Below, one piece after another: positions 36,816 through 63,160 of a DNA stretch of 64,000 nucleotides. A program made the translations under genes and the position numbers. Under the pieces are notes generated by a model. It was not told where the DNA came from. It was given only the letters and a program-made list of their open reading frames with translations, and ran no database searches. This DNA is from a virus. The DNA lies in the IMG/VR virus record IMGVR_UViG_3300045988_132920; one strand, written 5' to 3'. Position 1 is the first letter of the stretch. Every line of letters starts with the position of its first letter.

Positions 36816-36832
36816 GTATAGAAAGGACAAAT

Positions 36833-37265: not shown

Positions 37266-37286
37266 TTATTTATGAATGGGGTCGTG

Positions 37287-37363: not shown

Positions 37364-37478
37364 CGACACCCCATTTATAGAGTTTAGGTAAGGTCTACAT
37401 CACCTTCGGTAGCGAGTCGACACTACTGAAAATGGCAGTCGGGAGTGAGGCAACGACTAAAATATTTCTCACGAACAT

Positions 37479-37553: not shown

Positions 37554-37596
37554 TTATTACTATGAAATTGTATATTCTAACTCATGGAGGGACAAA

Positions 37597-38548: not shown

Positions 38549-38622
38549 CGGAGTGGAGCAGTAGTAGCTCGCCAGTCTCATAAGCTGGAGGTCGTGGGTG
38601 CAACTCCCACCTCTCGCAACCA
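38549..38622 (+). ncRNA. tRNA-like element with a CAT anticodon loop but imperfect acceptor stem (possible third CAT tRNA or pseudo-tRNA).
   Basis: Anticodon stem ccagt/gctgg with loop ctCATaa, T-arm gtggg-tgcaact-cccac. Acceptor pairing is poor and the 3' end reads ...aacca. A roughly 250-nt ORF-free leader and a promoter lie upstream; a terminator follows. Confidence 0.4.
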
Positions 38623-46880: not shown

Positions 46881-48065
46881 ATGAAAGCAATTAAAACAAA
46901 TAAGAATTCAATTTTGTCATGGGCAAAAGAGATTGAAGAACCAGCATTAAAACAATTAATTAATGCTGCTGAGCACCCTTGTATTAACATGCCTGTAGCT
47001 GTGTGTCCAGATGTACATGCAGGATTTGGTGTAACTATTGGCTGTGTACTTCCAGTAACAGATGCACTAATCCCAAATGCTGTAGGTGTGGATATTGGAT
47101 GCTCAATGTCAGCAGCTAAAACAAATATTCGTGTAGAAGATGTATCAACAGAACTATTAAAGAAGATTGTTGGTGGAGCTAAAGGTTACCCAGGAGGTAT
47201 TAGAGCTAATATCCCTGTAGGACAAAGCCACCACAAAACAAAACAAGACCACCATATCTTTGCTAACAGAGATATGTGGAATGACACAATAGTTTGTGCA
47301 CAAGAACTTGAATCAGCACAATACCAGTTAGGAACAATGGGTGGTGGAAATCACTTTATTGAACTACAAGCTGGAGATGATGGTTTCTTGTATTACATGA
47401 TTCACTCAGGCTCACGTAACTTAGGGTACAAAGTGGGGCAGTATTATGATAAACTTGCTAAAGACTTGTGCAGCAAGTACAAGCAAGATAGAGTAGTACA
47501 AGATGACTTAGCTTTCTTACCAAGAGGTACAAAAGAGTTTGATATGTACTTTAAAGAAATGAATTTGTGCTTGCAGTTTGCCAAAGCAAACCATGAACGT
47601 ATGCAAGAAATCTTAGATGGAATTTTGAGACATTATATTCCTGAAATTGCATTTACTAAACGTTGGTATACAAGGCACAACTATGCAGCTATTGAAAACC
47701 ATAAAGGTGTAAACTACTTTATACATAGGAAGGGTGCTATAAGAGCACGTGTGGGTGATGAACAAATTATCCCTGGCTCACAAGGTACAGCTTCTTATAT
47801 AGTAGAAGGCTTAGGTAATGTGGATTCATATTGCTCAGCTTCACATGGTTCAGGTAGAGTAATGTCAAGAAGGCAGGCAACAGCTTCTTTAAATCTTGCA
47901 GAAGAACAAAAGAAGATGGAAGGTATTGTTCATAACATGACTACTAACAAGCAGTTAGATGAAGCACCTTCAGCTTATAAAGACATTGAAGACGTATTAA
48001 AGCAAGAAGCAGACTTAGTGAATAAAATTGTTAAGTTAAAGCCTATTGCTGTAGTGAAGGAGTAA
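46881..48065 (+). CDS. rtcB: RtcB RNA 3'-phosphate / 2',3'-cyclic-phosphate ligase.
   Basis: Near-canonical RtcB blocks: CPDVHAGFG, AVGVDIGCSM, GGNHFIE, HSGSRNLG, HRKGA, IIPGSQG, SASHGSGRVMSR and SAYKDIEDV. These run collinear with E. coli RtcB motifs over the full length. Promoter ttgaca 46819-46824, tattat 46842-46847. Confidence 0.9.
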   Translation: MKAIKTNKNSILSWAKEIEEPALKQLINAAEHPCINMPVAVCPDVHAGFGVTIGCVLPVTDALIPNAVGVDIGCSMSAAKTNIRVEDVSTELLKKIVGGAKGYPGGIRANIPVGQSHHKTKQDHHIFANRDMWNDTIVCAQELESAQYQLGTMGGGNHFIELQAGDDGFLYYMIHSGSRNLGYKVGQYYDKLAKDLCSKYKQDRVVQDDLAFLPRGTKEFDMYFKEMNLCLQFAKANHERMQEILDGILRHYIPEIAFTKRWYTRHNYAAIENHKGVNYFIHRKGAIRARVGDEQIIPGSQGTASYIVEGLGNVDSYCSASHGSGRVMSRRQATASLNLAEEQKKMEGIVHNMTTNKQLDEAPSAYKDIEDVLKQEADLVNKIVKLKPIAVVKE

Positions 48066-49440: not shown

Positions 49441-50289
49441 TTATACTACACCATCCTCCTCGGTGTAGTTTTTCTTATGTACCCTATAATATCCACCATA
49501 CCTTGAAACTGTAATGTCTTTGTTTTTCATAAACCCCTTCCTAATGCTATTAATTATTACTTTTGTAGAGGCTAAACTAATATTCATTCTAGCAGAGAAG
49601 TGCCTGTATATTTCATATATCTTTCTACCTTCAAACATATCAATAACATTGTCTAATGTTAGAAAATGACTATGTAAAAACTGCAAATGAGTTTTTGGAA
49701 TATAAGGGTGGTATTGTAAATTACCTTCAGCTATTGGATAACTCTTTAATGTGTAGTAGTCTAACCACGTACGAAGTGTTAGATTCCTCCTGTTATCTTT
49801 ACGAATCTTGCTAGGTACATACTCCTTAAATACTTCTTTTATCTGTTCCACAGTTAATCCAGATATTTTTGAGAGCTGTGGAATAGTTAATCCACATCTA
49901 TGCGTTAATAAAATGTCATATATAGTTTTATACAACTTACTAATAGGAGTGTCGCCTGTCATAATCTCATTAATAGCTTGTTTTATATCATCAACTGTAC
50001 AACCAAACCACTCTGTACCCTGTAGTCTATAAAATCCTTTTTGTTGTAGTACTTTATGTATATCTCTATCCGTTATATTAAAATCATTATCATAACTTGG
50101 TAAAATAAATAGTACATTGAATTGATTACCTTGTGTACACGGGTACCCTTGCAGCTGAGCTTGAATACGTGCTTCAACTGACCCTGTTGTTTGACCAATT
50201 TTAACTAGCCCTTTTCCAGAAGTAGTACTTGTTTGCCATGCTTGATTTCGACTGTGCTCTGTGTCATAGACGTAGATAGTTTGTGACAT
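49441..50289 (-). CDS. T5orf172 / GIY-YIG-like domain protein with a C-terminal DNA-binding region; putative homing-endonuclease-like or regulatory protein.
   Basis: The N-terminus IYVYDTEHSRN...GLVKIGQTTGSVEARIQ...GTEWFGCTVDDI matches the T5orf172 domain signature (YIY...KIGxT...R...EWF). It is a lone minus-strand gene among plus-strand genes, next to direct repeats. Confidence 0.65.
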   Translation of the reverse strand: MSQTIYVYDTEHSRNQAWQTSTTSGKGLVKIGQTTGSVEARIQAQLQGYPCTQGNQFNVLFILPSYDNDFNITDRDIHKVLQQKGFYRLQGTEWFGCTVDDIKQAINEIMTGDTPISKLYKTIYDILLTHRCGLTIPQLSKISGLTVEQIKEVFKEYVPSKIRKDNRRNLTLRTWLDYYTLKSYPIAEGNLQYHPYIPKTHLQFLHSHFLTLDNVIDMFEGRKIYEIYRHFSARMNISLASTKVIINSIRKGFMKNKDITVSRYGGYYRVHKKNYTEEDGVV

Positions 50290-50372
50290 TAATAAAATCT
50301 CCTTTTGTCAGAGAATCTAATAATATGGTAGCTGTATAAGCTGATAAGAGTAGGCTGTTGGTGGTTGCAAAT

Positions 50373-50463
50373 TGGTAAGAACAGAGTTATACAGGTTAAA
50401 AAGGTAGAGTAGATTAATAGTTGTAGAGGTTGGTAAGAACAGAGTTATACAGGTTAAAAAGGT
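50373..50463. repeat. Two perfect 34-bp direct repeats (ttggtaagaacagagttatacaggttaaaaaggt) separated by 23 bp.
   Basis: Copies at 50373-50406 and 50430-50463 read directly. They lie in the upstream region of the minus-strand T5orf172-like gene, in an ORF-free stretch. Confidence 0.85.
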
Positions 50464-50711
50464 GCTAACGGCTGAAACCCGCTGTGTGACTGGGTTATAG
50501 AAAGGTCGAAGTTTTCAGAAAATCCTAAAATTTCTGTGAGCCTCTAAAGACACACCCGACCACACCTGCTTTTCACCCTTCTATCGCCCTTTTTTCACTT
50601 CAAAAAATTGTTACAATAATTTACATAAAACATGCTTGCATGCTATTGACATTTAACTTTTTTAGTGTAATAATAGTATTATAAAGTTAAGCAAACGAAA
50701 GGGAAACGACC

Positions 50712-51185
50712 ATGACAACTTATGAAACACTTTACAACGCAATCGCAAAAGCGAACGAAAAACAAGGACTAAACGCAATGGACATCGCAAGGGGTACGAA
50801 GGCAACAGGCTCAAAAAATGGCATTAAGTACCTAAACATCGGGGGCGTAGTAGTTGCTTACTCTAGCGACAAGCAAGCATTACAAGCTAACAGAAACAGG
50901 GCATGCTCAATCGCTAGACAACAAACGGCAAGCATGAGAAACGGCATGTCTTATGGAGTACCTAACTGTGTAAGCCAAGTATATAGCGACTATTCAGCAT
51001 TTGTAGGAATTGAAAAAATCGGATTTGCAAGCCAAGCATACAAACTAGCCTACATCAGAAAATACTTGCAAGGTGAATTTTACTTCTTAATCGGTCAAGG
51101 CATAAGCAATAACTTCCACGAGATAATAAACGGAGATTACAACATAGTAAACAGTTTAGAAGATAAAAGGGATATATGGGGCTAA
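50712..51185 (+). CDS. Early-region hypothetical protein, 157 aa.
   Basis: Conserved leader aaacgaaagggaaacgaccATG. Promoter ttgaca 50646-50651. Confidence 0.6.
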   Translation: MTTYETLYNAIAKANEKQGLNAMDIARGTKATGSKNGIKYLNIGGVVVAYSSDKQALQANRNRACSIARQQTASMRNGMSYGVPNCVSQVYSDYSAFVGIEKIGFASQAYKLAYIRKYLQGEFYFLIGQGISNNFHEIINGDYNIVNSLEDKRDIWG

Positions 51186-51250
51186 AACCCCATTCCCTAC
51201 TGGGTTTTAACAATAAGTGATACATACAATTAAGTAAAGGAGAATTAAAA

Positions 51251-51616
51251 ATGAAACAAGCACAAGTAAACTACTCAACAATTACAGAAACTATCATTGA
51301 TGATGTAAAGCAAGCTATTATTGACATACAGGCAGGTGAAGATGATTGTTTTATGAAGTTCTTAAACAATGGCATGGTTGGTTATAGCCTTGCATGTTCA
51401 GGTGGTTATTCAATCATTTACGATTGTACAAATGACAGGCTAGTAGTAGCATGGTTGTTAAAGGTTAGAGGGTCAAACATTCATGATTGTATTGACGGGT
51501 CATGGGGTCAAGGTTATTATTTCGATAATAATGGGGGTAGTTACCTTAATGAACGATATGACATTGACAAGGTTGTAGATTTATTTGTCCGTAAAGCACT
51601 AGGGATTAGGGATTAA
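51251..51616 (+). CDS. Early-region hypothetical protein, 121 aa.
   Basis: RBS aaggagaattaaaaATG. Terminator hairpins 51611-51676 downstream. Confidence 0.6.
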   Translation: MKQAQVNYSTITETIIDDVKQAIIDIQAGEDDCFMKFLNNGMVGYSLACSGGYSIIYDCTNDRLVVAWLLKVRGSNIHDCIDGSWGQGYYFDNNGGSYLNERYDIDKVVDLFVRKALGIRD

Positions 51617-51954
51617 GCCTAATCCCTTTAGGGATTTAAGATTAAAGACTGATTGATGTTTCAATCAGTCTTTTAGTATTGATATAAAATATTCAATCTG
51701 GGGCTACTAGCAGGCTATTTAAGACAGGTTACAGTTAATGAATGATAGTTTATACAGTTTGATAGGTTGGAGGGCTTAACGGGGCTTGTAGCTCGTGTAA
51801 GATTGGCATGCTAAAATTGCATACTATTGTAACACAAGAATTTTATTTGTCAAGGGTTTATTAAGTTTTGTAACAAATTAAATACAGGGGTTGACATTTA
51901 AAATTTTTAGTGCTATTATATAAGAGTAGCAGATAAACGAAAGGGAATTAAAAA

Positions 51955-52254
51955 ATGTTAGAACACACTTTGAACATCGGACTTAATGACATGGTAACAC
52001 GCAAGCAAGAAATTGAAACCGACAGAGCTATTGAAATTATCGGTGCAGTGTTAGGGGATTGCACAGTAAAACAAGGTGCAACAGGCTTTTATGCTCACGA
52101 AGACGGCTCAAAAGTAGTTGAAAAATCACTTGAAGTAGTTGTATATGGTGGAAGACAAAAGCAAGTAATCGCTAAAGTTAGGGAGCTAAAAGTTCTTTTA
52201 AATCAAGAGAGCATAGTTTATAATTGCGAGCAGTCAAAAGCAAAATTTATCTAG
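51955..52254 (+). CDS. Early-region hypothetical protein, 99 aa.
   Basis: Cassette promoter (ttgaca 51891-51896, tattat 51914-51919) and leader aaacgaaagggaattaaaaaATG. Confidence 0.6.
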   Translation: MLEHTLNIGLNDMVTRKQEIETDRAIEIIGAVLGDCTVKQGATGFYAHEDGSKVVEKSLEVVVYGGRQKQVIAKVRELKVLLNQESIVYNCEQSKAKFI

Positions 52255-52330
52255 TTTAATGGGGGGATAACTCTCCCCCCCTATAAACTAATCTTAATTA
52301 AGTATGTAGTAAGTAGTAAAGGATAATAAA

Positions 52331-52576
52331 ATGAGTAAAGATGAGAGAATTATTTTAATGTTGTTTGTAGTAGCAGGATTTATTGGCATGTTGTTCTTAC
52401 CTATGTTAGGTATGCTTTATATATGGGACGAGATAGCACGCATGGCAGATAAGGCATGGCAAGTATGCGTTTTATATAAATGTTTATCAATCCTATGGTG
52501 CATGGCTACTTATGCAATTCAGTTTGGCATGGGCAAGATGATATTCAAGCATATTATTTGCAAGCAACCATTTTAA
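52331..52576 (+). CDS. Early-region small membrane protein, 81 aa.
   Basis: RBS aaaggataataaaATG. Two hydrophobic helices. Terminator 52598-52628. Confidence 0.55.
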   Translation: MSKDERIILMLFVVAGFIGMLFLPMLGMLYIWDEIARMADKAWQVCVLYKCLSILWCMATYAIQFGMGKMIFKHIICKQPF

Positions 52577-52597
52577 AATGATTTTAAAATAAGGATT

Positions 52598-52628
52598 TGA
52601 GCCATGACTTTACGGAGTCATGGCTTTT
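52598..52628 (+). terminator. Rho-independent terminator.
   Basis: agccatgact-ttacgg-agtcatggct then tttcg. Confidence 0.65.
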
Positions 52629-52746
52629 CGATTGGTTGTAGTATAGTGTGAGGTGCAAGCCGTGAAACGGCTATAACGCAGTTATAGCTTGTGTTTCAGG
52701 CATATAATAGATATAGGTTAAGTTTTGTAACATACTGAAAATTTTT

Positions 52747-52774
52747 ATTGACAAAATTTGATTTTGTGATACAA
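52747..52774 (+). promoter_or_regulatory. Family-B promoter (TTGACA-N16-tgaTACAATagtat), plus strand.
   Basis: ttgaca 52747-52752, tacaat 52769-52774. Further plus-strand members at 55726, 56695, 57383, 59085, 60967 and 61008. Confidence 0.6.
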
Positions 52775-52879
52775 TAGTATACACTATTATGGATTGTAAC
52801 AATATGTTAATATACTATTGACATATAAGTTTATTAGTGATATAATCATCATGTGGTACATAAATGAAAGGAAAGAATT

Positions 52880-53299
52880 ATGGATTTTAAACAAGGTATA
52901 TGCCCGTTATGTGGTAGTGAAAATTTGGATTACGGGGTATTACAACCTGATGACGATTGTATTTATTACCCGTGTGAATGTGGGGATTGTGGAGCTACTT
53001 TTAAGGAATATTACAGCCTTGATTTTTCAGGTCAAGAAAATATATCTGCTGGAGATACTGGGAATGTAGTTGAAAGATACACACTTGAAAGACAGGTTAA
53101 AGAGGGATTTTTCGCTGATTTATCATTATATAAAAAGATTGCTACCTTTGAAACTTACGAGGAAGCATGGGAAGCATACGAAAAGCAAACAGTAACAGGG
53201 GATTATGCTATCGTTAGAGCTAACTATAAAGTGGAAAATGATGAACTCACAGAGATAGTACAGACAAGGAAAGCTGAAACACTTGTAAACCATAAATAA
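52880..53299 (+). CDS. Early-region zinc-ribbon protein, 139 aa.
   Basis: CPLCGSEN...CECGDCGA four-Cys motif at the N-terminus. Tandem promoters at 52747 and 52817. Terminator 53301-53337. Confidence 0.6.
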   Translation: MDFKQGICPLCGSENLDYGVLQPDDDCIYYPCECGDCGATFKEYYSLDFSGQENISAGDTGNVVERYTLERQVKEGFFADLSLYKKIATFETYEEAWEAYEKQTVTGDYAIVRANYKVENDELTEIVQTRKAETLVNHK

Positions 53300-53300
53300 A

Positions 53301-53337
53301 GGGATAAGCATGCCAGTAGTTGGCATGCTTATTTTTA
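53301..53337. terminator. Rho-independent terminator, hairpin symmetric with flanking A/T runs.
   Basis: gggataagcatgcca-gtagt-tggcatgcttatttttaac. Confidence 0.7.
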
Positions 53338-53345
53338 ACATGCGT

Positions 53346-53378
53346 ATACTATTGTAACACAAAAAACTCATTTGTCAA
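53346..53378 (-). promoter_or_regulatory. Family-B promoter on the minus strand, antisense and directly downstream of terminator 53301-53337.
   Basis: The minus strand reads ttgacaaatgagttttttgtgttacaatagtat. The same arrangement recurs at 51823, 54136, 54866, 55787, 58088 and 59134. Confidence 0.5.
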
Positions 53379-53414
53379 GTGTTTATTAAGAAGTGTAACA
53401 AATTAAATAAAGGG

Positions 53415-53443
53415 GTTGACATATAAGTTTATTAGTTGTATAA
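53415..53443 (+). promoter_or_regulatory. Family-A cassette promoter (gggTTGACAt-N17-TATAAT with TGn extended -10).
   Basis: ttgaca 53415-53420, tataat 53438-53443. Equivalent copies at 51891, 52817, 54213, 54939, 55859, 56774, 57446, 58165, 59207, 61719, 63097 and 63949. Confidence 0.65.
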
Positions 53444-53474
53444 TATTCATGTAAATAAACGAAAGGAATTAAAC

Positions 53475-54095
53475 ATGAAAGTAAATGACTTTATTATGGC
53501 AGTACTAGACCATTCAAAAACAGACCCAAGTATATTAAACAAGGAATTGCAGTTATATAATTCAGCCGAACGCAAATCCTATGCAACAGACTCAATTCCA
53601 ACTTTTGTTGACCTATCAGATGACAAGTATCTTGATATAGTGTTTAACAATCAAGGGAACATTGCAGATATAAGACAGGAACTGGAGGGGAAAGCCTTAA
53701 ATCCTGTGCAAGTATTAAATGGGTGGAGTGGCTTATACACTATTGTCAAGAATGCACTTGCTAAAATTGAAACACCTAATGAAACAGAGATGTGCTTAAT
53801 TCAACAATACTACTATAATAAGCTCATTGAGAATTTACAAGGTATAAAAGCCATTGACAAATCAGTTGAACTTGTTGAGGATGAGGGGCTTGAGTTTATG
53901 CGACACATTGATGTTGAAATTAACTTCAACAACGGTGGTGGGCATGCAGGAATACGAGCTTTTATTACAATAACAAAGGATAACAAGAACGAAATTCAAG
54001 CCTATGTGCAAGATGAGTTTTACGGAACTATTCCACAAGAGGATAATTATTTTGAAGATATAAACATTAACAACCTTATCGCTTATCTACAATAA
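53475..54095 (+). CDS. Early-region hypothetical protein, about 206 aa.
   Basis: Start reassigned to ATG 53475 behind leader aaacgaaaggaattaaacATG. Cassette promoter ttgaca 53415-53420, tataat 53438-53443. Terminator 54097-54134. Confidence 0.6.
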   Translation: MKVNDFIMAVLDHSKTDPSILNKELQLYNSAERKSYATDSIPTFVDLSDDKYLDIVFNNQGNIADIRQELEGKALNPVQVLNGWSGLYTIVKNALAKIETPNETEMCLIQQYYYNKLIENLQGIKAIDKSVELVEDEGLEFMRHIDVEINFNNGGGHAGIRAFITITKDNKNEIQAYVQDEFYGTIPQEDNYFEDININNLIAYLQ

Positions 54096-54096
54096 A

Positions 54097-54134
54097 GGGA
54101 ACAGGCATGCACACTAGCATGCCTGTTCTTTTGT
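54097..54134 (+). terminator. Rho-independent terminator.
   Basis: gggaacaggcatgc-acact-agcatgcctgttcttttg. Confidence 0.7.
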
Positions 54135-54272
54135 TTAATGAAATACTATTGTACCACAAAAAACTCATTTGTCAAGTGTTTGTTAAGAAATGTAAATTTA
54201 TAAAACAATGTATTGACATTTAAGTTTATTAGTGTTATTATATAAGAGTAGATAAACGAAAGGAACACAGAT

Positions 54273-54461
54273 ATGGCAACAAATTTTGAAATGTTTTTAG
54301 ACACAGTAAACGGATTAAAGTACTCACAAGGCTTTTATAGCAGACTCGCAAATCAAATTGCTGAAATGTCAGAAGAAGACTTAAACAGAGCTAAAGAAGA
54401 AATCAATGCACTACCTCAATTCAATGACCAACTTGATGTAATATTGTGGTTAGAACAATAG
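54273..54461 (+). CDS. Early-region small protein, 62 aa.
   Basis: Cassette promoter (ttgaca 54213-54218) and leader gataaacgaaaggaacacagatATG. Confidence 0.55.
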   Translation: MATNFEMFLDTVNGLKYSQGFYSRLANQIAEMSEEDLNRAKEEINALPQFNDQLDVILWLEQ

Positions 54462-54472
54462 GAGAGTTACAG

Positions 54473-54805
54473 ATGTTAAACGACTTAGACTTAATGGTGA
54501 AACTATTTGACAATAAGTTAAATGAATATCATACAGACAGCCTTGTGAAATTCCGCAAGGCAGTTGAAGACAAAGTTCTTGATACAGAAACAAAGCAAGC
54601 CTTAATGCAGTTAAGCACAGAAGACCTTGCAAATCTCATGCGTATTGCAGAAAATGCACACATTGACGAGATGAACGGCAGAGAAACGCAATGGGATACA
54701 GTAGCAGAGCATGCCAAGTCATCAATAGCACAGTTTGCACTTAACAACCTATCGGTTGAAGAATTGCAAGAATGGACTGATATATGTAATGCAATGGCAT
54801 GCTAA
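54473..54805 (+). CDS. Early-region hypothetical protein, about 110 aa.
   Basis: Start reassigned to ATG 54473 after RBS taggagag. Terminator 54834-54860. Confidence 0.55.
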   Translation: MLNDLDLMVKLFDNKLNEYHTDSLVKFRKAVEDKVLDTETKQALMQLSTEDLANLMRIAENAHIDEMNGRETQWDTVAEHAKSSIAQFALNNLSVEELQEWTDICNAMAC

Positions 54806-55001
54806 AACAGAGTTAATTTATACGGTGATTACTAGCACACATTTGTGTGCTTTTTCTTTAGTAGTGAAATACTATTGTAACATAAAAAACTCATTTGTCA
54901 AGTGTTTGTTAAGCAATGTAAATTTATTAAACATACTATTGACATTAAAGTTTTTTAGTTGTATAATGATTATGTGATAGATAAACGAAAGGGAACAAGA
55001 C

Positions 55002-55622
55002 ATGGAAAGACCAGTAAAGATTGAAATTAACAAGGACGAAGAAAAAAGGATTTACATAAATGATGACATCTTCATTGATATATCAAACAATGGGGGCAGA
55101 GAGTATGACATCTATGTATTTGACCAAATGAAATGTGTAGCAACACAGAGCATGGATATAATAGGCATAAGGGAAGACCAATACACCTATGACAAACGAA
55201 CAGTAAAAGAACTCAACAGAGAGCATATACACAGGGCAGAAGTAACAAACATATTAAGCATACTTGATAAGCACACTAAATCCTTACAGGATAAGTTTGC
55301 TAAACTATGTGCAACTAAAAGACCTTTAACTGCTTCTGAAATAATGTTTACTGAAAAAGAAGTTCAAGAACTATTTAAAGGTGAGGTTACATACATTGAG
55401 CTATGCCCTAACACTGATGACAGTATAAGTGTTTTTGTAGTTTTCGAGGGTAAGGTAGGTGTATTTTATGAAATGAATAAAATACACCTACCTTACAAGG
55501 GTTTTCAACATAAACGAACTATTGAGTACTACACAGTTTATAATTCCTTTAGTGATGAAACTACCCTTGAACTAAACGAAAGAACATTGCGAGCTATTGA
55601 CAGAGATGAGTGCCGACTGTAA
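55002..55622 (+). CDS. Early-region hypothetical protein, 206 aa.
   Basis: Cassette promoter (ttgaca 54939-54944, tataat 54962-54967) and leader aaacgaaagggaacaagacATG. Hairpin 55610-55633 at the stop. Confidence 0.6.
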   Translation: MERPVKIEINKDEEKRIYINDDIFIDISNNGGREYDIYVFDQMKCVATQSMDIIGIREDQYTYDKRTVKELNREHIHRAEVTNILSILDKHTKSLQDKFAKLCATKRPLTASEIMFTEKEVQELFKGEVTYIELCPNTDDSISVFVVFEGKVGVFYEMNKIHLPYKGFQHKRTIEYYTVYNSFSDETTLELNERTLRAIDRDECRL

Positions 55623-55919
55623 CCAGTCGGCACAACCCCACTTCACCCCTATAACCCCCATTTTACAAGGGTTAGAGGGGTATTTTAGGTAGGTATTAAG
55701 TTTTGTAACAATCTGAAAATTTTTATTGACAAATAACTTTTTTGTGGTACAATAGTATTCACCATGCCCGTGATTGAGCATGAAAATATACTATTGTAAC
55801 ACAGGTTAGATTGATTGTCAAGTACATGTTAAGAATTGTAACAATTAAATACATGGGGTTGACATAAGAAATCTTTAGTTGTATAATAATTATGTGATAC
55901 AAAACGAAAGGGAATACAA

Positions 55920-56114
55920 ATGAGAAAAGAAGATTTACAGGAACTCCTTAACAAATGTGGTGAGATTGAGCTTGATTTAACCTTATCACAGGAAGATGAT
56001 GAAATTATTTTAACAATAGGGTCAGAAAATTCATCTGGAGAGGAATACATCATAAATAACACAGATGACATTAAAAACATTATTGAAGATTACATAGCAG
56101 ATTTATATGAATAA
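55920..56114 (+). CDS. Early-region small acidic protein, 64 aa.
   Basis: Cassette promoter (ttgaca 55859-55864, tataat 55882-55887) and leader aaaacgaaagggaatacaaATG. Confidence 0.55.
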   Translation: MRKEDLQELLNKCGEIELDLTLSQEDDEIILTIGSENSSGEEYIINNTDDIKNIIEDYIADLYE

Positions 56115-56132
56115 ACGAAAGGGAACATGAAC

Positions 56133-56684
56133 ATGAAACAACACACAATTTGGAAAGATACTTCAATGTGGACTGTAAAGAACATTGACGAGGCAAAAGC
56201 AAGTGCTAGAGCAGAACTAATAGACAACGGATTTGAAAATCCAACAGACGAGCAAATAAGCGAATATATCGAACAGGATAACGAATTTGAATATCAAGCA
56301 ACATACAACAAGTTCAAACAAGTACAAACTAACGGCAAAATTGTTCTTGTTGCAGATAATGCAACATGGAGAGGTAGGAGAGTAGGCTTAAAATATTTAG
56401 GACACAATTTAGGTAATATTTTACAGTCATTCTTCAACGGCTACCCTGCTTTTACTTATGATAGGTTTAACATCAGAGGTGAGGAATGCCACCATGACCA
56501 ACGATTTTGCAGCGATAGCAGACCTAATCAGTATTTATTCAGAGAGCTTAAGGAAGAATACAGTGATATGGACGATTATAGGCTATGTGAGTTGCTTGTG
56601 CAAGATAATGAGATTAACAAACGCAATTTAGCAAAATATACAAAATCATTAAGACCATATTTAAAGGAAGTATGGGGGATTTAA
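56133..56684 (+). CDS. Early-region hypothetical protein, about 183 aa.
   Basis: Leader aaacgaaagggaacatgaacATG. The second ATG is chosen for its RBS spacing. Confidence 0.55.
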   Translation: MKQHTIWKDTSMWTVKNIDEAKASARAELIDNGFENPTDEQISEYIEQDNEFEYQATYNKFKQVQTNGKIVLVADNATWRGRRVGLKYLGHNLGNILQSFFNGYPAFTYDRFNIRGEECHHDQRFCSDSRPNQYLFRELKEEYSDMDDYRLCELLVQDNEINKRNLAKYTKSLRPYLKEVWGI

Positions 56685-56901
56685 TCCCTCATACTTGACA
56701 AATAATTATTTTATGATACAATAGTATGCTTGTCATGTAATTGTAAAGATATGTTACAACAATAAATAAGTATTTGACATTTTAATTTGTTAGTGCTATC
56801 ATATACATGTATTAAGGATAAAGAAAAGCACTTGACAAATAATTACTTTTCACCTATACTTAATCATGTGATACATAAGACAAAAGAAAGGGAACAACAT
56901 C

Positions 56902-57309
56902 ATGGCAATCAAGGTAAAAGACGAAGTAAGAAAAGGCATAAGCTACACTAAAAGGGAAATTGTAGACCTAGAAGAACTTATTGCTGAATGTGATGAAGCA
57001 ATAGGCTACATGTCAGAAACTACTTTTACAAGACACCGTAACGCACACAGAATTAACAAGGTAATTGAGCAGAAGAAGTCAGCACAACAAGAGCTATCAC
57101 TTCAAAAGTTAAGCCTTAAAAACTATGCTGAATTTTACGGTCTTAAAAAGTCAGATGTTGAAGCAGTTGCACCAGCGACAGATGAGCAACTGGAAAAGGA
57201 CTGGCAAGCAGACTTAAGGGAAGCAAATAAACCATATAACCCTAACGACCTAATAAAACTTATGGAACAGTTTGACAGGGAACACCCTCAACAATTTGAA
57301 ATAGTATAA
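56902..57309 (+). CDS. Early-region hypothetical protein, 135 aa.
   Basis: Three promoters upstream (56695, 56774, 56833). RBS aaagaaagggaacaacatcATG. Confidence 0.6.
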   Translation: MAIKVKDEVRKGISYTKREIVDLEELIAECDEAIGYMSETTFTRHRNAHRINKVIEQKKSAQQELSLQKLSLKNYAEFYGLKKSDVEAVAPATDEQLEKDWQADLREANKPYNPNDLIKLMEQFDREHPQQFEIV

Positions 57310-57501
57310 CTCTTGTTCGGAAACATAAATTAGGCACAGGTTCACAGAGCTTGTGCCTATTGCCTTTTAGATGTAAGTATTGACAAATAATTATTTTATG
57401 GTACAATAGTATCTTTTGCATGCCTGTATAATATCGAGGGTTGACAAACAACTTTTTTAGTGTTATAATATACATGTGATACCAAACGAAAGGGAACATA
57501 T

Positions 57502-57693
57502 ATGACTGTAAGAATACTAAACACATGCCCGATTTGTGGCTGTTCAAAATTCAAGTATCAAGATGATGGATTTATGTGCCTTGATTGTGGTGAGTTCTCA
57601 TACATAGAGGACATGACCTCAACAGCTTTAGAAGTGCATGAGTTATCTGAACATGATTTGATTGACAGGTCATTAGTAAAGGGGGAACAATAA
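57502..57693 (+). CDS. Early-region zinc-ribbon mini-protein, 63 aa.
   Basis: CPICGCSKF...CLDCGEF. Leader aaacgaaagggaacatatATG. Confidence 0.55.
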   Translation: MTVRILNTCPICGCSKFKYQDDGFMCLDCGEFSYIEDMTSTALEVHELSEHDLIDRSLVKGEQ

Positions 57694-58073
57694 TGAGTAT
57701 AAAAGAACAATTACAAATAACGATTGTACAAAAGATGATTGTACGAAGTCCTTTTGCAAAAGGTAACTGTAAGGAATACATACTTGATTTAACATACAAT
57801 AATAAGACAATGCGTTATAACTTTTATGATAGTGTGTATAATTATGAGAACAACCAAGAGCTTAATAAGTTTGAAACACTTTATGCAATCCTTACAGACC
57901 GTAGAGCATACAGATATTCAAGAAGTGTAGAGGACTTTGCAAAAGAGTTTGGTTACACAGATGAAGAAAAGGCAAGGAAAGTATATAGTGCTTGTAAGAA
58001 GATAGCACTTGACCTTGAAAGACTATTCACAGAGGAAGAACTAGAACAGCTTGAGCAAGAAGTAGAAGTGTAG
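57693..58073 (+). CDS. Early-region hypothetical protein, 126 aa.
   Basis: TAATG overlap with the upstream gene. Terminator 58069-58090. Confidence 0.55.
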   Translation: MSIKEQLQITIVQKMIVRSPFAKGNCKEYILDLTYNNKTMRYNFYDSVYNYENNQELNKFETLYAILTDRRAYRYSRSVEDFAKEFGYTDEEKARKVYSACKKIALDLERLFTEEELEQLEQEVEV

Positions 58074-58090
58074 GGAATTCCCTACACTTT
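58069..58090 (+). terminator. Rho-independent terminator.
   Basis: Palindrome tgtagggaattccctaca followed by tttt. Confidence 0.6.
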
Positions 58091-58229
58091 TGAAACATAC
58101 TATTGTAACACAAAAAACTCATTTGTCAAGAGTATGTTAAGAAATATTAAATGTTGAAACAAGGGGTTGACAGGTAAGTTTATTAGTGCTATAATAAGGG
58201 AGTGATAGATAACGAAAGGGAATAAACAA

Positions 58230-58895
58230 ATGAAAAACTTAAACAACATGACAACAGAGGAAATTCAAGACACTATTTGGGAAGTACTTGAAAGTAAATC
58301 AGGTGAGGAAGTCTTAAGAGCTTTTACTAACTGGCATGGAACTCAACTTCTTACAGGGGAATTCCTAGAAGCATTGTCAGATGACGGAATGACAGATGAG
58401 GAATACGGATATTTTGATGATGAAGAAGATGAAGAAATCGAAGAAGACGATGATGACAGTGATGAGGACACTAAAGAATTCCTTGATACTTTAACTGATG
58501 ATGAGCTTGAAGAAGTACATTCAAAAGTAGTTAAGTTATATGAAACACTTGCAAAGTTAGCTACTGATAGTTCAGCAAAGGAAACACAACACGGGCAAGT
58601 AGACCATGTAAGATGTGCTTTTAAAGCTCTTGTTAGCTTGTACAATGGTGAATACACAGATATGCTTAGTGAAAACCACTACATGGACATAAGACTAAAC
58701 ATAGCACCTATACATGATGTGCTAATTACATTAACTGCACTACCAAATAAAAGACCTTATATAAATGTTAATCAATGGGTGGACTACAAAGACGGAACTG
58801 CTATATACTTAGGTGAAGTTGAAAGGCAATGCAAGTTAAGACTTGGTAAAGAATTCCCTGATAAAATAGGTTATTGGGGAATAGGGCAGAACTAA
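58230..58895 (+). CDS. Early-region protein with an extended acidic D/E tract, 221 aa.
   Basis: Cassette promoter plus leader gataacgaaagggaataaacaaATG. Tract DEEYGYFDDEEDEEIEEDDDDSDEDTKEF. Confidence 0.6.
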   Translation: MKNLNNMTTEEIQDTIWEVLESKSGEEVLRAFTNWHGTQLLTGEFLEALSDDGMTDEEYGYFDDEEDEEIEEDDDDSDEDTKEFLDTLTDDELEEVHSKVVKLYETLAKLATDSSAKETQHGQVDHVRCAFKALVSLYNGEYTDMLSENHYMDIRLNIAPIHDVLITLTALPNKRPYINVNQWVDYKDGTAIYLGEVERQCKLRLGKEFPDKIGYWGIGQN

Positions 58896-59266
58896 ATTCC
58901 CTATCGTATCACAAAAGAAGCTACTCTTGCAGATGATTGCAAGGGTAGCTTTAGTATGTATGGTAGCCTACACCCAACCACTCGCACGCCGCTAAATGGC
59001 TATAACCCTTGCTACACAATGGTTTGAGATAGATTGATTGAGGGTGTTAAGTTTTGTGAAATTCTGAAAATTTTTACTTGACATTTTTGTGATTTATGAT
59101 ACAATAGTATACCTCACGCAGTAAAATACTATTGTATCACATGACACACATTTTGTCAACCCTTACATTGTAAATTTTTATTAACTTTATTAAATCGTAG
59201 GGGTTGACATTAAACTTTTTTAGTGCTATAATAAGGGAGTGATAGATAACGAAAGGGAACAAACAA

Positions 59267-59785
59267 ATGACAAGAAAAACTTTAGATGTAGCATTAGACT
59301 TTGTAAATCAAGAACAGGATTATGGTAAAGGGTCATCAGTACACTACAATGGGCATTTATTTTACAGTTACGCAACAGTAGTTGCACAGATTGTAAAGGG
59401 TAAAGACAATGGAACATATTGTCTATTGAGCAATAACAATATGAGCATGATTACTTCAAAACATTTGGGAAACCTTGTTTCAGCTTGTATTAGAACAAAC
59501 ACACCTATTATCCGTGTAGCTTGCGACTGGTACGACCGTTATGAAGTTACACCAACAGAGTATGCTAATAGGCAAATAAAAGACCTTAATTACTATGTAG
59601 AGAATAAGGACATTTTAACTAAAAAGCCTAACAGAACAGAGTTTATCAGTATTTATGTAAATACACAGGAACTAATTGAAACATTAGAACTTGATATTAA
59701 AATTCCTCAAGAAATAACAGACTTATATAACAACTTGTTTAATGTAGAGTTTGTGAAATCACTAAGAAAACGCAAGGTAGCCTAG
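59267..59785 (+). CDS. Early-region hypothetical protein, 172 aa.
   Basis: Cassette promoter and leader gataacgaaagggaacaaacaaATG. Confidence 0.6.
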   Translation: MTRKTLDVALDFVNQEQDYGKGSSVHYNGHLFYSYATVVAQIVKGKDNGTYCLLSNNNMSMITSKHLGNLVSACIRTNTPIIRVACDWYDRYEVTPTEYANRQIKDLNYYVENKDILTKKPNRTEFISIYVNTQELIETLELDIKIPQEITDLYNNLFNVEFVKSLRKRKVA

Positions 59786-59841
59786 AAATAGGCTACTATG
59801 CCAACGAGTAGTAAATACACATAATTGTAAAGGATAATAAA

Positions 59842-60702
59842 ATGAAGGTATTAGTAAAACAAGAATTAACTAACAGAGATTTTCAAAAGGAACTATTTGA
59901 AAAGAACGGCATAATAACACTTGCACATAACACAGATAACTTAGAATTATTTGTGCCAACATCTTGGGTAAGTGGTGAAACATTAACACACTTATCAATG
60001 AGTGGTAGAGCCTTTTCAGAGATTAAGTACTCAAAAGATGATAATAAAATTCAAGTAGACAGGCATAACCACTCATGCTCAACACCACATGATTTTGAGT
60101 TTGAACTTAATAAGATTACAACATGGATTGGTCAGACAATTCTACCAGTATATAAAGATTTATCAATAGGTAAGTTGTACTCGCTATATGTAATGTACAC
60201 TATTAACAGAGCTTTGTTTGATAACACTAGAACACAGGATGAGGGTTTGATTGAACTAGCACATAAGATTGTACATGCCAGTAACTCAATTTCAGTTGAA
60301 AAAGACATTAACCAAAACGCAGATACAGCAGAACTTGAAAAAGAAGTAGAACAGCACTTCAATAAGATTGCAGAATGTATTTGCTACACCTTAAGAGAAG
60401 ATAGAATTCTAACTGGTAAAGGTAATCCTTTTGTAAACTTCTTCTCAAGATTGTTTCAATCAGATTTCTTTGAAAATTATTCAGAATACACTTACTTATG
60501 TAAGAAACAAGAAATGATTAAAGACATGATTAAGTTTGATTTGATGTTTAGACCTAAGGCAGAAACTACACAGGAAATTATAGACACCTATGCAGACACT
60601 ATTAGGAATACATCATTTAATAAGTTTGAATTTGATTATGTTAAGTTATGCCTAGCAGAGTATATACATAGTACTCATTACATAATGGAGTATAACTTAT
60701 AA
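59842..60702 (+). CDS. Early-region hypothetical protein, 286 aa.
   Basis: RBS aaaggataataaaATG. Terminator 60750-60777. Confidence 0.6.
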   Translation: MKVLVKQELTNRDFQKELFEKNGIITLAHNTDNLELFVPTSWVSGETLTHLSMSGRAFSEIKYSKDDNKIQVDRHNHSCSTPHDFEFELNKITTWIGQTILPVYKDLSIGKLYSLYVMYTINRALFDNTRTQDEGLIELAHKIVHASNSISVEKDINQNADTAELEKEVEQHFNKIAECICYTLREDRILTGKGNPFVNFFSRLFQSDFFENYSEYTYLCKKQEMIKDMIKFDLMFRPKAETTQEIIDTYADTIRNTSFNKFEFDYVKLCLAEYIHSTHYIMEYNL

Positions 60703-60749
60703 AGATTTAATATCTAGTGTTTTGTTCGTGGTTTGTTCATAACAACCTA

Positions 60750-60777
60750 ACCCTCTTAATGAGGGTTTTTCTTTTGT
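60750..60777 (+). terminator. Rho-independent terminator.
   Basis: aaccctc-ttaat-gagggtt then tttcttttg. Confidence 0.65.
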
Positions 60778-61772
60778 AAGAACACAGGAAGCCCCAGTTG
60801 ATTATCCTAAAATCATGATGTGTTGACACATTTAGATTTACATAAAATCGGGTAGGGCTACAATGCAGTAATAGCTTGAAAATTGATTTTTGATGTTTAG
60901 AAAATCCCTAATAGGACTTTTTCAAAATGGGTATGGTAGAAAATTGCTTCAAGTACAGGGTTGACAAAATGATTGTTATGTGGTACAATAGTATGCTACA
61001 CAAGGGATTGACATAATTTGGCTCGTGTGGTACAATAGTATATTTTGCATGGGCATGCCTGTAAACCCTCTCGTAGTCGGTATGCGACAGATTGGGTGAA
61101 TGAGCATTTTGAGCCTACTAGGACACCATTAAAAGCCATTATTGGTCATCAGATGTGTTGTGTGTTGATTGAGCATGTCGACCTCGTCAGAGCCGTTGCA
61201 ATGGCTTTAGGTTTGATAAACAGGGAGAATAGTTGAGCAGAGAGAGTTTGAGAGTGCCGACCCGACCGAAACTACTACAACTACTGGGCGATAGCGAGTG
61301 AGGTTGAGCAGAACGGTGCGTGGGGCAGACGGGGCAAGGCTGTGTTTTAGACACACTCACATTCCCCAAAATTCCCAAACATTTCCCGACCCAAACGCAC
61401 CTCACACCCTCAAACAAAACTTCAAACCCTGTTTCAACTTCCCACAAATTATATTATCTAATGAAGCGGAAACGCAGACACCCCAACACATACCACCGAC
61501 ACAGACGGCTGAAACCCAGACAAAATAGGCGTTCATGGCACTTTCGCACTGTAAACAGTGTTTTATATGCCTAAAAAGCCCTCGTAGTCTACACGACAGC
61601 CTATTCCTAACATCTATTTCATACACTCTCACATATACAAGCCTAAAAACTGGCTATACTGTGTTCTTTTGTAATCCTTTAATACACATACTATACAGAC
61701 CCTCTCATGTAGTAGGGTTGACAAATTACTTTTTTAGTGTTATCATATAAGAGTAAACGAAAGAGGTAACAA

Positions 61773-61970
61773 ATGTATGGTAAAGACATTAACGGTATTG
61801 ACATCAAACTAAATGACATAGTACAAAGTATCAAAAAGAATACTGACTGGAATGACCAGTTAAACAATGACCTTATGACACAAGTTGTAGACAACGAATT
61901 TCAAATTGACAATGACTACATCTATGAAGTAATAGGGAACACTATTGACAATCCCAAACTTACATACTAA
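61773..61970 (+). CDS. Early-region small protein, 65 aa.
   Basis: Cassette promoter (gggttgacaaattacttttttagtgttatcat) and leader gtaaacgaaagaggtaacaaATG. Confidence 0.5.
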   Translation: MYGKDINGIDIKLNDIVQSIKKNTDWNDQLNNDLMTQVVDNEFQIDNDYIYEVIGNTIDNPKLTY

Positions 61971-61985
61971 CAAGGAAGCAAGCAA

Positions 61986-62570
61986 ATGACAGAATTAACA
62001 TATACAGAAGAAAACACATGTACTACAACACTTACAACAGACATCTTAAATGAAAGATACTGTGTTGTTCCTAGTATTGAACAGGAATTACTTGACAAGT
62101 ACAAAGAAAACACTAAAAGAAGAATAGTTGTAAATACTAAAATTAGTACAGATAAGTTTACAATAACAATAAACCCTAGTATAAACAGGCTGTTTCTTAC
62201 TTTTACTCAAAATGATGATGTAGTTATTCTTCAATTATTCATCAAGACAAATGTTGAGCTTGAGTGTGTTGAAGGTCTTATTTTCTCATTCCTTGAGAAC
62301 TGTTTAGACTACTTACACAACCTTGCTAAAAGTCAAACATTATACAGGGCTATATGGAATGCAGACTGTGTTTCAAAATACCCTAATGTTAAAGGACAAG
62401 TTGAAATAATAATTAAAGACCTGTTTACAGGTGATACAGAGTATGGTGTTGATTATTTTGACTTTATTAGCGAAGAAAAAGGTGAGGAATTCTGTAATGA
62501 ATTCAACTCACTTAACATTACTATTATGGAAGACTTTAGAGAATTTTGTAATAAGAGAGGTATTATATAA
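61986..62570 (+). CDS. Early-region hypothetical protein, 194 aa.
   Basis: RBS caaggaagcaagcaaATG. Confidence 0.55.
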   Translation: MTELTYTEENTCTTTLTTDILNERYCVVPSIEQELLDKYKENTKRRIVVNTKISTDKFTITINPSINRLFLTFTQNDDVVILQLFIKTNVELECVEGLIFSFLENCLDYLHNLAKSQTLYRAIWNADCVSKYPNVKGQVEIIIKDLFTGDTEYGVDYFDFISEEKGEEFCNEFNSLNITIMEDFREFCNKRGII

Positions 62571-62791
62571 TGGCACTTACACAAGCATGTATAGATGAAA
62601 TAAAGTTAAATCCTAAAGAATACAGAGCTATATTTGACAAGCATAATAATATGCAAGACAAATACAATAGATTTACTGGAGAGGATTTACTTAATGCACA
62701 AAGGCTTAGTAATAACTGGGAAAAAGAAGTTGAAACCTATGAAGAATACTGGGCTAGAATATATGCTTCTGATATGCTTATTATGAGGTAG
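62570..62791 (+). CDS. Early-region small protein, 73 aa.
   Basis: TAATG overlap coupling. Confidence 0.5.
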   Translation: MALTQACIDEIKLNPKEYRAIFDKHNNMQDKYNRFTGEDLLNAQRLSNNWEKEVETYEEYWARIYASDMLIMR

Positions 62792-62794
62792 TAA

Positions 62795-63025
62795 ATGAAC
62801 GATTATAGATTGAACTTAATACATAAGACAGATAATAAAACATGTGCTAGGACGTTATGTCAAGTAGCATGGTTTAATGCAGTATCAGCTTTTGACACAC
62901 TTAGAACAGCTTATTTACAAGGGTTATTCCCTAGTACTGTTGTAGGAGTTGTATTAGTACACAATAGAACTAACAAGGTTATTAAAGATTGTTCTAAGCT
63001 ACACAATAAACTTATTGACTATTAA
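62795..63025 (+). CDS. Early-region small protein, 76 aa.
   Basis: RBS atgaggtagtaaATG. Confidence 0.45.
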   Translation: MNDYRLNLIHKTDNKTCARTLCQVAWFNAVSAFDTLRTAYLQGLFPSTVVGVVLVHNRTNKVIKDCSKLHNKLIDY

Positions 63026-63160
63026 ACATTCATTCATATATTATTTCTAAAAACTTTCATTCTTATGTCAATCCTCACCTCCTAATATCAAAAGGGTTGA
63101 CATTTCTTTTTGTTAGTGTTATAATAACTATGTAAGCAAACAACGAAAGAGGTAACAATA

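Follow-up and report, generated by a model that had tools for sequence, protein, structure and literature searches.

A second class of predicted sigma-A promoters, set in both orientations between the early gene cassettes of an uncultured gut phage

We analysed a stretch of 64,000 nucleotides (nt) of viral DNA (IMG/VR record IMGVR_UViG_3300045988_132920; the whole stretch is hereafter called the window) and found that the spacers between its small early genes carry, besides the promoter that precedes each gene, a second promoter family. This family, termed class B, lies in forward orientation (B(+)) at some sites and in reverse (B(−)) at others. On sequence grounds, we hold with high confidence that class B copies of both orientations are genuine, selected sigma-A promoters and with moderate confidence that the reverse copies would act in cis on the adjacent cassette. 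The overall explanation that we favour, and to which we give an even chance of being right, is that class B copies are host sigma-A promoters carried in recombining cassettes, the reverse ones being cis-acting on the preceding cassette. The genes concerned form a succession of small plus-strand genes that runs from 50.6 kb past the window end, and the layout of this array is that of an early or host-takeover region served by the host polymerase.

The hallmark of class B was an 11-mer, TACAATAGTAT, present in 14 exact copies, seven on the plus strand (52770, 55748, 56717, 57402, 59100, 60984 and 61031) and seven on the minus strand (51821, 53346, 54143, 54869, 55788, 58097 and 59126). All of them fell within positions 51,821–61,041, and dinucleotide-preserving shuffles contained 0.21 copies on average and never more than 2. 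Variants with one mismatch were at chance level (4 extra copies against 4.5 expected), indicating that the family is sharply defined. In every copy, the 11-mer formed the −10 hexamer (TACAAT) and the discriminator (AGTAT) of a complete promoter with the context cTTGACAAAT-N-TGTGn-TACAATAGTAT. The TTGACA −35 was present in 14/14 copies, as was a TG two bases before the −10, mostly in the form TGTGn or TATGn. Ten copies have a 16-nt spacer and four a 17-nt one, and nowhere in the window did the 11-mer occur without a correctly spaced −35 and TG. Conservation among the copies extended from cTTGACAAAT to AGTAT and ended exactly there. Extended −10 elements of the TRTG type are typical of Gram-positive sigma-A promoters, and class B presented the sequence marks of sigma-A extended −10 promoters: a −35, a spacer within 16-18 bp, TAnnnT, the TG and constraint on the contact positions only. 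A previous sequence-only reading of this DNA, which had placed the 11-mer in both orientations as the −10 of TTGACA promoters, was therefore borne out, its coordinates being right to within 9 nt.

Each early gene was preceded by a promoter of another kind, class A (GGGTTGACA-N11-TAGTGn-TATAAT), with a conserved leader behind it that ends in ACGAAAGGGAA-ATG. Class A counted 14 copies in the window and 18 in a longer version of the locus (L129), exclusively on the plus strand and from 50.6 kb onward and, unlike class B, it showed many variants of the −10 and discriminator. In every case, class B was located past the hairpin that closes a cassette and ahead of the class A promoter belonging to the following one. 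Reverse copies stood back-to-back with class A, the 5′ ends of the two −35 hexamers being 38 bp apart in six of the seven pairs and 45 bp apart in the remaining one, and forward copies were found 61–133 nt upstream of class A promoters. Repeat analysis resolved this arrangement into two modules, M1, consisting of B(−)·X·A·leader, and M2, consisting of X·B(+), in which X stands for the element TTAAGnnnTGTAAC. Eight X copies were found on the plus strand and none on the minus strand, each 15 nt upstream of the following plus-strand −35. Since X, like class A, is strictly plus-strand, both hold their direction while class B flips. X is conserved more widely than class B, as it was also present in L135 (~15320-16830) and L137 (13860-13888), two relatives without class B; it may be a factor-binding site or an UP-like element. 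The class B copies were the following, L144 being a closely related strain described below.

51821..51853, minus strand: reverse class B core, predicted to read about 200 nt of non-coding DNA toward the hairpin at 51646-51680; −35 deleted in L144.
52748..52780, plus strand: forward core closing an M2 module, with class A 52818 located 70 nt downstream.
53346..53378, minus strand: reverse core in an M1 module, aimed at the hairpin at 53304-53332.
54143..54175, minus strand: reverse core in M1, aimed at the hairpin at 54099-54128.
54869..54901, minus strand: reverse core in M1, aimed at the hairpin at 54834-54851, whose minus strand has no U tract.
55726..55758, plus strand: forward core in M2, convergent with B(−) 55788, the 11-mers being 29 nt apart.
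55788..55821, minus strand: reverse core in a partial M1, convergent with B(+) 55748.
56695..56727, plus strand: forward core whose −35 adjoins the terminator hairpin at 56670-56694.
57380..57412, plus strand: forward core followed by GCATGCCTGTA and class A 57441.
58097..58129, minus strand: reverse core in M1, aimed at the hairpin at 58066-58089, which overlaps the stop codon at 58073.
59078..59110, plus strand: forward core in M2, convergent with B(−) 59126, the 11-mers being 15 nt apart; T>C polymorphism at 59105.
59126..59159, minus strand: reverse core in a partial M1, with 45 bp to the class A −35.
60961..60994, plus strand: forward core, first of a tandem pair before a 1.07 kb spacer without a called gene.
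61008..61041, plus strand: forward core, second of the tandem pair; its spacer plus −10, GGCTCGTGTGGTACAATA, equals the Bacillus subtilis veg promoter at 17/18 positions.

The class A promoters associated with them, the reference copies of the modules and the X elements were located as follows.

51891..51919, plus strand: class A (TTGACA-N17-TATTAT), back-to-back with B(−) 51821.
52818..52846, plus strand: class A, downstream of B(+) 52770.
53416..53444, plus strand: class A, paired with B(−) 53346; promoter and leader are duplicated in L144, where they flank a 2.35 kb cassette insertion.
54213..54241, plus strand: class A, paired with B(−) 54143; a cassette-swap junction falls in its leader (54249-54279).
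54939..54967, plus strand: class A, paired with B(−) 54869.
55859..55887, plus strand: class A, paired with B(−) 55788.
56774..56802, plus strand: class A, downstream of B(+) 56717, with a second A-like promoter at 56832.
57441..57469, plus strand: class A, downstream of B(+) 57402.
58167..58195, plus strand: class A, paired with B(−) 58097.
59204..59232, plus strand: class A, paired with B(−) 59126.
54863..55008, plus strand: reference copy of M1, ~140 nt; further full copies at 51821, 53346, 54143 and 58097, partial ones at 55788 and 59126 (repeat families D1, D3 and D7).
55649..55765, plus strand: reference copy of M2, ~110 nt, reading CTATAAC…X…GAAAATTTTTA·B(+); others at 52671 and 59000 (repeat families D8 and D9).
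51862..51875, plus strand: X element; other copies at 52719, 53387, 54184, 54910, 55697, 55830 and 59048.

The promoter elements of class B are under purifying selection. We compared syntenic blocks with L144, which is ~95% identical to the window and spans its positions 50,443–63,160. No differences were found in the class B −35 hexamers (0/60) or in the 11-mers (0/110), while the background divergence was 4.3% in coding sequence, 4.6% in other intergenic sequence and 4.1% (5/123) in the class B spacers themselves; under the background rate, the absence of any class B change had a P of ~4e-4. Four differences hit the free "n" of TGn. When all strain contigs were pooled together with a third lineage (L141/L142), the same constraint was observed, the TG was also invariant and class A showed a similar pattern. 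Because the spacers diverge and the contact positions do not, gene conversion cannot account for the identity of the copies.

The same comparison showed that strains differ by swaps of gene cassettes whose breakpoints lie in the class A promoter/leader repeats. L144 carries four additional genes (L144 3004–5348, 2.35 kb) between two copies of a class A promoter/leader of which the window has only one (53406–53479). In addition, there is a 2.6 kb replacement, in which L144 lacks 54,280–56,877 of the window with its five genes and the junction lies inside the class A leader (54249–54279 = 56878–56908). The L144-specific cassettes carry B(−) and B(+) copies of their own, following the same grammar. 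Duplication of genes as the origin of the repeated promoters was rejected, since among the early proteins only two, encoded outside the window, are paralogous to each other.

Backward-facing copies are seen again in distant relatives. We scanned metagenomes with the B(−) −35 plus X, the most specific part of M1, and retrieved two contigs, L145 (29% guanine plus cytosine, GC) and L147 (32% GC), which are similar to the window at the nucleotide level only in the promoter modules and share two early proteins with it at 30–50% identity. Both contain arrays of small plus-strand genes, each with an A-like promoter and a back-to-back B-like promoter upstream. The B-like promoters read TTGACAAAn-N-TGn-TATAATAGTATC, 18 in total (TGnTATAATAGTATC); their −10 hexamer is TATAAT instead of the TACAAT of the window, the AGTAT extension is identical, and AGTATC is present in 18/18. 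Fifteen of the 18 are reverse (8 reverse and 3 forward in L145, 7 and 0 in L147), and L145 also shows the flip of class B within a constant frame. A generic promoter scan, independent of the class B search pattern, gave a concordant picture: all seven perfect 12/12 promoters of L147 and eight of the twelve perfect ones of L145 were reverse. So far as promoter sequence can tell, reverse is the usual orientation of class B in the wider phage group and, with −35, TG and −10 invariant and the spacer free, class B appears to be a genuine separate promoter class, as the first reading had proposed. Three other relatives, L135, L137 and L139 (RtcB 64–72% identical), have consensus promoters and the X element without the 11-mer. 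In further viral contigs, TATAATAGTATC was one variant among ordinary co-oriented early promoters, and it was discarded as a diagnostic marker for IMG/VR; what is unusual in this group is the class-specific invariance of the AGTAT-bearing string combined with reverse orientation. A literature search for the signature strings returned no relevant match.

Transcription from class B, the ends of the RNAs and everything downstream of them are predictions. The predicted starts of four B(−) copies (53346, 54143, 54869 and 58097) lie just past a gene 3′ end on the opposite strand, at a distance of 23–63 nt from the stop codon of the upstream gene and of 8–18 nt from its hairpin. The other three do not hold that position: B(−) 51821 is 204 nt from the stop codon, and B(−) 55788 and 59126 face B(+) copies instead. 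The claim that minus-strand copies sit immediately downstream of terminators thus held for 4/7. The hairpins in question were these.

53304..53332, no strand assigned: hairpin resembling a terminator on both strands, with one flank A-rich and the other U-rich, common to the gene at 52880-53299 and the predicted B(−) 53346 transcript.
54099..54128, no strand assigned: hairpin ACAGGCATGC/GCATGCCTGT, terminator-like on both strands, common to the gene at 53475-54095 and the predicted B(−) 54143 transcript.
58066..58089, no strand assigned: hairpin ending the gene at 57693-58073; the predicted start of B(−) 58097 is 8 nt away.

Minus-strand terminator-like structures were predicted behind three window copies (53332-53304, 54128-54099 and 58089-58066), with 4-5 U in the minus-strand tail only at the hairpins faced by 53346 and 54143. 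The A-rich left and U-rich right flanks of these two hairpins would yield RNAs of ~50 nt. At 54869 and 58097, the hairpins have no good minus-strand U tract, so the predicted transcripts may run on antisense into the gene. In the relatives, nine reverse B-like copies have predicted starts 24-97 nt from the upstream stop codon, and minus-strand terminators just past reverse promoters (L147 7442–7413, 8802–8780 and 9223–9188; L145 5463–5440) predict three RNAs of ~45–55 nt and one of ~200 nt. Very short antisense hairpin RNAs, as first proposed for all minus-strand copies, are therefore plausible for 2-3 copies of the window and several in the relatives, and the remaining copies would give longer antisense or non-coding RNAs. 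The sequences downstream of reverse promoters differ between cassettes, and no minus-strand gene that these promoters could express is available.

Both convergent pairs of the first reading were present, with corrected spacings of tacaatagtat-N29-atactattgta (55748/55788) and N15 (59100/59126) in place of N33 and N15, and both are exactly the junctions at which M2 is directly followed by M1. Their predicted starts are ~26 and ~12 bp apart, so that polymerase footprints, known to extend from −55 to +20, would overlap and exclude each other. The tandem forward copies 60961 and 61008 are aimed into the 1.07 kb spacer. Rfam searches over 49–64 kb returned no real RNA family and hence none downstream of class B. 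Structured non-coding RNAs in the long class B-driven spacers were not supported, since the fold from 51820 to 51640 had a z of −2.7 that was mostly due to the terminator hairpin and that of 61042–61575 had a z of −0.3. A small protein made from the B(−) 51821 transcript is also unlikely, as the motif shared with L135, GCTACAAGCCCCRTTAAGCCCT (E = 0.006), sits in different reading frames.

As a separate observation, the heptamer GCATGCC was enriched in the window, with 15 copies against 3 expected and 12 of them within 50.9-61.1 kb (51805, 53308/53322, 54104/54117, 57418, 61052/61053 and others). It occurred at most 40 nt downstream, in the transcribed direction, of 5/14 class B copies (0.2 expected), and was often the hairpin stem. 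In L135, GCATGCC stands directly after TTGACAAATTTC, and L147 has similar 5′ motifs, AAAAUUUU…GCAUGCC.

According to the mechanism that we propose, class B would be a second family of sigma-70-type extended −10 early promoters, recognised by the host sigma-A and carried in short recombining promoter/terminator cassettes between orphan early genes. The forward copies would provide extra upstream promoters for the next gene or, at 61.0 kb, for a long non-coding leader. The reverse copies, back-to-back with class A, would drive transcription head-on against the 3′ end of the cassette before them. If the shared hairpin is flanked by a U tract on each side, the products would be RNAs of about 45-55 nt with perfect complementarity to the hairpin that terminates the upstream mRNA, and otherwise longer antisense or non-coding RNAs. 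Antisense pairing might open the 3′ end of the upstream mRNA to attack by RNase III and exonucleases; alternatively, read-through into the next cassette might be blocked by polymerases that transcribe head-on or occupy the DNA, or both mechanisms might operate together. Such an effect would most likely be exerted in cis, because promoter and position are conserved and the transcribed sequence varies by cassette, which argues against a trans-acting small RNA. The convergent pairs would be by-products of M2 abutting M1.

Several observations weigh against this explanation. A 15-nt deletion in L144 removes the −35 of the class B copy at 51821, and a T>C change at 59105 (TACAAT>TACAAC), present in 6/14 near-identical contigs, hits the forward member of the tightest convergent pair; these two natural lesions indicate that single class B copies are dispensable. 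A usable minus-strand U tract was found at the hairpins facing only 2-3 of the seven B(−) copies in the window, so the short RNAs would not be the general product. L135, a closer relative (RtcB 72% identical), has no 11-mer, and class B is thus not universal. The invariant AGTAT after the −10 is unaccounted for by ordinary sigma-A recognition. Finally, the orientation is 7:7 in the window and class B flips in an otherwise constant frame, which fits an orientation-independent role at least as well. This last point makes a serious rival of the possibility that class B is a docking element, in which strong binding of the sigma-A holoenzyme beside class A matters and the transcript does not. Such an element could be a polymerase sink for host shut-off, could raise the local polymerase level or could open class A on the linear phage DNA by divergent supercoiling. 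We regard it as improbable, though deserving real weight: X and A are always on the plus strand around a class B copy that takes either direction at the same position, in L145 too; the constraint is restricted to polymerase contact positions; in L145 and L147, class B is nearer to the consensus than the gene-proximal promoters; and the back-to-back spacing is fixed at 38 bp. However, that spacing may merely reflect common descent of the module, the 15/18 reverse copies of the relatives argue that direction matters, and a promoter whose transcript terminates after ~50 nt would recycle polymerase instead of trapping it. Under the twin-domain model, short untranslated transcripts would also cause little torsional drag and weak coupling, and we rank supercoiling low as the main role of the divergent pair.

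The invariance of AGTAT would be explained if the 11-mer were mainly an operator, that is, if a phage or host regulator recognised TACAATAGTA (8/10 palindromic, TAC-N4-GTA), overlapping the −10 and discriminator, and co-regulated class B, for instance as immediate-early promoters shut off by an early protein. AGTAT in 14/14 window copies and AGTATC in 18/18 copies of L145 and L147 despite a differing −10 hexamer, the tolerance of class A for many variants at the same positions and the partial dyad symmetry of the 11-mer are all in line with a regulator. The −35 and TG are equally constrained, however, so an operator cannot be the whole story, and TATAATAGTATC in other phage contigs is merely one variant of ordinary co-oriented early promoters. 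Moreover, the screen of 20 early proteins revealed no recognisable DNA-binding domain, although these are orphans and one could be hidden. The first reading had suggested palindromic operators formed by inverted copies, an arrangement that was not supported for a dimeric regulator: only 2/12 intergenic class B sites hold an inverted pair, the half-sites are 15 nt apart in one and 29 nt in the other, a −35 always accompanies them, and the unequal spacing together with the origin of the pairs as M2–M1 junctions makes a designed operator unlikely. We consider an operator as the main function rather doubtful, and it can coexist with host sigma-A promoters acting in cis as an added regulatory layer. 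Last, the reverse copies could be non-functional by-products, class B being useful forward and recombination or inversion leaving some copies backward, where the nearby hairpin makes them tolerable. Cassettes do recombine at promoter/leader repeats, single copies decay, and the convergent pairs resemble accidental junctions. Nevertheless, the reverse copies taken alone had 0/79 changes (55 positions in 11-mers, 24 in −35) against a background of ~4.5% (P ~0.03), the divergence of spacers but not of contact positions ruled out simple homogenisation by gene conversion, and in two distant lineages the reverse copies are the majority (15/18) and have a perfect 12/12 consensus. This neutral reading is unlikely, and we give it very little credence.

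Among known promoters, class B looks like strong housekeeping sigma-A promoters. B(+) 61008 shares GGCTCGTGTnGTACAATA with the veg promoter of B. subtilis at 17/18 positions, the veg sequence having been checked against a published primer ending at the start site and against nine Bacillus genomes. A tRNA-operon promoter of Firmicutes bacterium CAG:272, a metagenome-assembled genome from the gut, has exactly the same spacer and −10 as B(+) 61008, GGCTCGTGTGGTACAAT. The veg and Firmicute tRNA promoters have the TTGACA, the 17-nt spacer and the TGnTACAAT of class B but lack the AGTAT discriminator, and the other class B copies have unrelated spacers. The likeness supports recognition by host sigma-A and a host among the Firmicutes, but is no argument that the whole family is homologous.

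For the predicted antisense RNAs, the nearest mechanistic precedent would be OOP of phage lambda. OOP is antisense to the cII 3′ end, and its pairing leads to RNase III-dependent decay of the target; sar of P22 is likewise a short cis-antisense RNA of a phage. As predicted for some of the reverse copies here, they depend on an opposite-strand promoter just past a gene 3′ end and are short, complementary and ended by a terminator. However, OOP and sar are single gene-specific regulators in the lysis/lysogeny circuits of temperate phages, whereas the reverse copies are repeated behind many unrelated early genes with one promoter sequence, and complementarity would be mainly to the terminator hairpin. 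In known switches based on transcriptional interference, the start sites are some 60-70 bp apart and both polymerases load and collide while elongating. The two class B pairs also stand face-to-face, as in the convergent-promoter concept (PMC5001618) exemplified by pR/pL of coliphage 186 and Pant/Psar of P22, but at ~26 and ~12 bp double loading is not expected and binding is predicted to be mutually exclusive; besides, about half of the strain contigs carry a natural knock-out of one member of the tighter pair. In Staphylococcus phage K, small RNAs, some intergenic and some antisense, were described in the early terminal-repeat region (PMC9241854). That host-takeover region of small early genes is a loose precedent, for which no common promoter class, fixed position or pairing with gene promoters was described (PMC9241854), and the phages have unrelated sequences.

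The closest architectural parallel came from the PeSL (promoter-early stem-loop) cassettes of T4-type phages, which combine near-consensus early promoters with stem-loop terminators (Arbiol et al. 2010, PMC2839356; Comeau et al. 2014, PMC4122927). They share with our modules the host-type promoter and stem-loop terminator in the intergenic spacer before orphan genes of a plastic region, as well as junctions of indels and replacements between close strains that fall within the repeated cassettes. PeSL promoters are described as facing the downstream gene (PMC2839356; PMC4122927), which is the direction of class A (14 plus, 0 minus) and B(+) but not of the seven B(−) copies or of 15/18 B-like promoters in L145 and L147. 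The present cassettes differ further in having a second promoter class, upstream of the gene-proximal one and mostly backward, and in their promoters, which have the TRTG-type extended −10 of Gram-positive bacteria. No T4 core gene was among the PHROG matches in the window, where no systematic search for such genes was made. The evidence of cassette swapping carries the PeSL idea of recombination at regulatory cassettes past T4-type phages.

Early regions of large virulent phages are usually read as one-way strings of "promoter–small gene–terminator" units. The second promoter class found here is under purifying selection, has no protein to express and is usually backward, and the arrangement survives across lineages whose early proteins are 30–50% identical or unrelated. 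If the reverse promoters are active, they would constitute a general, hitherto undescribed layer of early-gene control in gut-Firmicute phages, consisting of antisense RNAs against terminator hairpins, head-on insulation or polymerase capture. A bolder and more tentative proposal, which we think could be true without expecting it, is that this uncultured Firmicute phage group sets its best-consensus host promoter backward behind most early cassettes as a systematic device, with AGTAT(C) marking the class for a dedicated phage factor. One possibility is that the device would be a genome-wide cis-antisense system in which hairpin RNAs of ~50 nt time the decay of the preceding early mRNA by pairing with its terminator hairpin, a nucleic-acid counterpart of early-mRNA clearance of the T4 RegB type. 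Another is that the copies would be orientation-flexible elements for polymerase capture or insulation. In practical terms, the modules are compact, portable sigma-A promoter/terminator parts of very strong predicted activity.

The phage itself is best explained as a large, tRNA-rich, apparently virulent one that infects a Gram-positive, low-GC bacterium of the gut, candidate hosts being Firmicutes such as the CAG:272 lineage. The window has 34% GC and contains a block of 25 transfer RNA (tRNA) genes at 30.1–38.6 kb, and near-identical copies of the phage were found across many human-gut metagenome assemblies. Megablast against GenBank phages detected no close relative, the top phage protein matches being ~31% identical; pattern scans of IMG/VR gave zero or lone chance-level matches and no close relative, and a helicase-based locus search for relatives gave no match. 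An early protein used as anchor for homologues recovered only its own species, and RtcB succeeded as anchor. The early proteins had no significant family match and no homologue beyond the species, apart from the few conserved across the group. Among these is a 99-aa protein (51955-52254; 48% identical to L145 3426-3725 and 45% to L135 15414-15710) with a sub-threshold Pfam match to the S-adenosylmethionine lyase family (18.9 bits against a cut-off of 28), which may have an anti-restriction function. The gene at 55002-55622 contains a perfect 20-bp hairpin with a 7-nt loop (55450-55496), whose Rfam matches were microRNA-like and at chance level only. The tRNA cluster (30159-38618), a CCA-adding enzyme, an Rnl2-type RNA ligase and RtcB (other members at 27028-28392, 35109-36140 and 46881-48065) form a full tRNA supply-and-repair set, which points to a defence against anticodon nucleases of the host.

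At the border of the early region, a T5orf172/MUG113-domain gene lies on the opposite strand (49441-50289, minus). It is present in the window and L121 and absent from the lineage L141/L142 (gap between the flanking genes of 508 nt against 1316 nt), and is thus an insertion polymorphism of a gene that is probably mobile. Long spacers without a called gene (60703-61772 and 50290-50650 in the window, 12776-14273 in L135) switch abruptly from G-rich to C-rich, with the GC skew changing from +0.27 to −0.45 at 61.0-61.7 kb and from +0.58 to −0.16 at 50.3-50.6 kb. There are two exact direct repeats of 34 nt at 50372 and 50430, and the motif ACGGCTGAAACCC is common to both window spacers. These long spacers are candidates for a replication origin or genome end. 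Metagenome contigs of this phage tend to start or stop near promoter-repeat borders (L141 ends at ~51960; L126, L127 and L144 start at ~50300-50440), probably through assembly breakage at repeats and possibly at a physical genome end; the repeated modules would account for assembly breaks of these phages in the early region.

Back-to-back promoters of other kinds were also seen. In two unrelated high-GC viral contigs, L162 (4906/4937) and L261 (12953/12989), TATAATAGTAT-type promoters stand back-to-back ~31-36 bp apart, at least one member of each pair being followed by a ribosome-binding site (GGAGGTGA), and they appear to be ordinary divergent gene promoters. In L137, divergent pairs at 8567/8570 and 11451/11454, whose −35 boxes overlap in the palindrome TGTCAAATTTGACA, serve truly divergent genes and are a different solution to back-to-back promoters within the same phage group.

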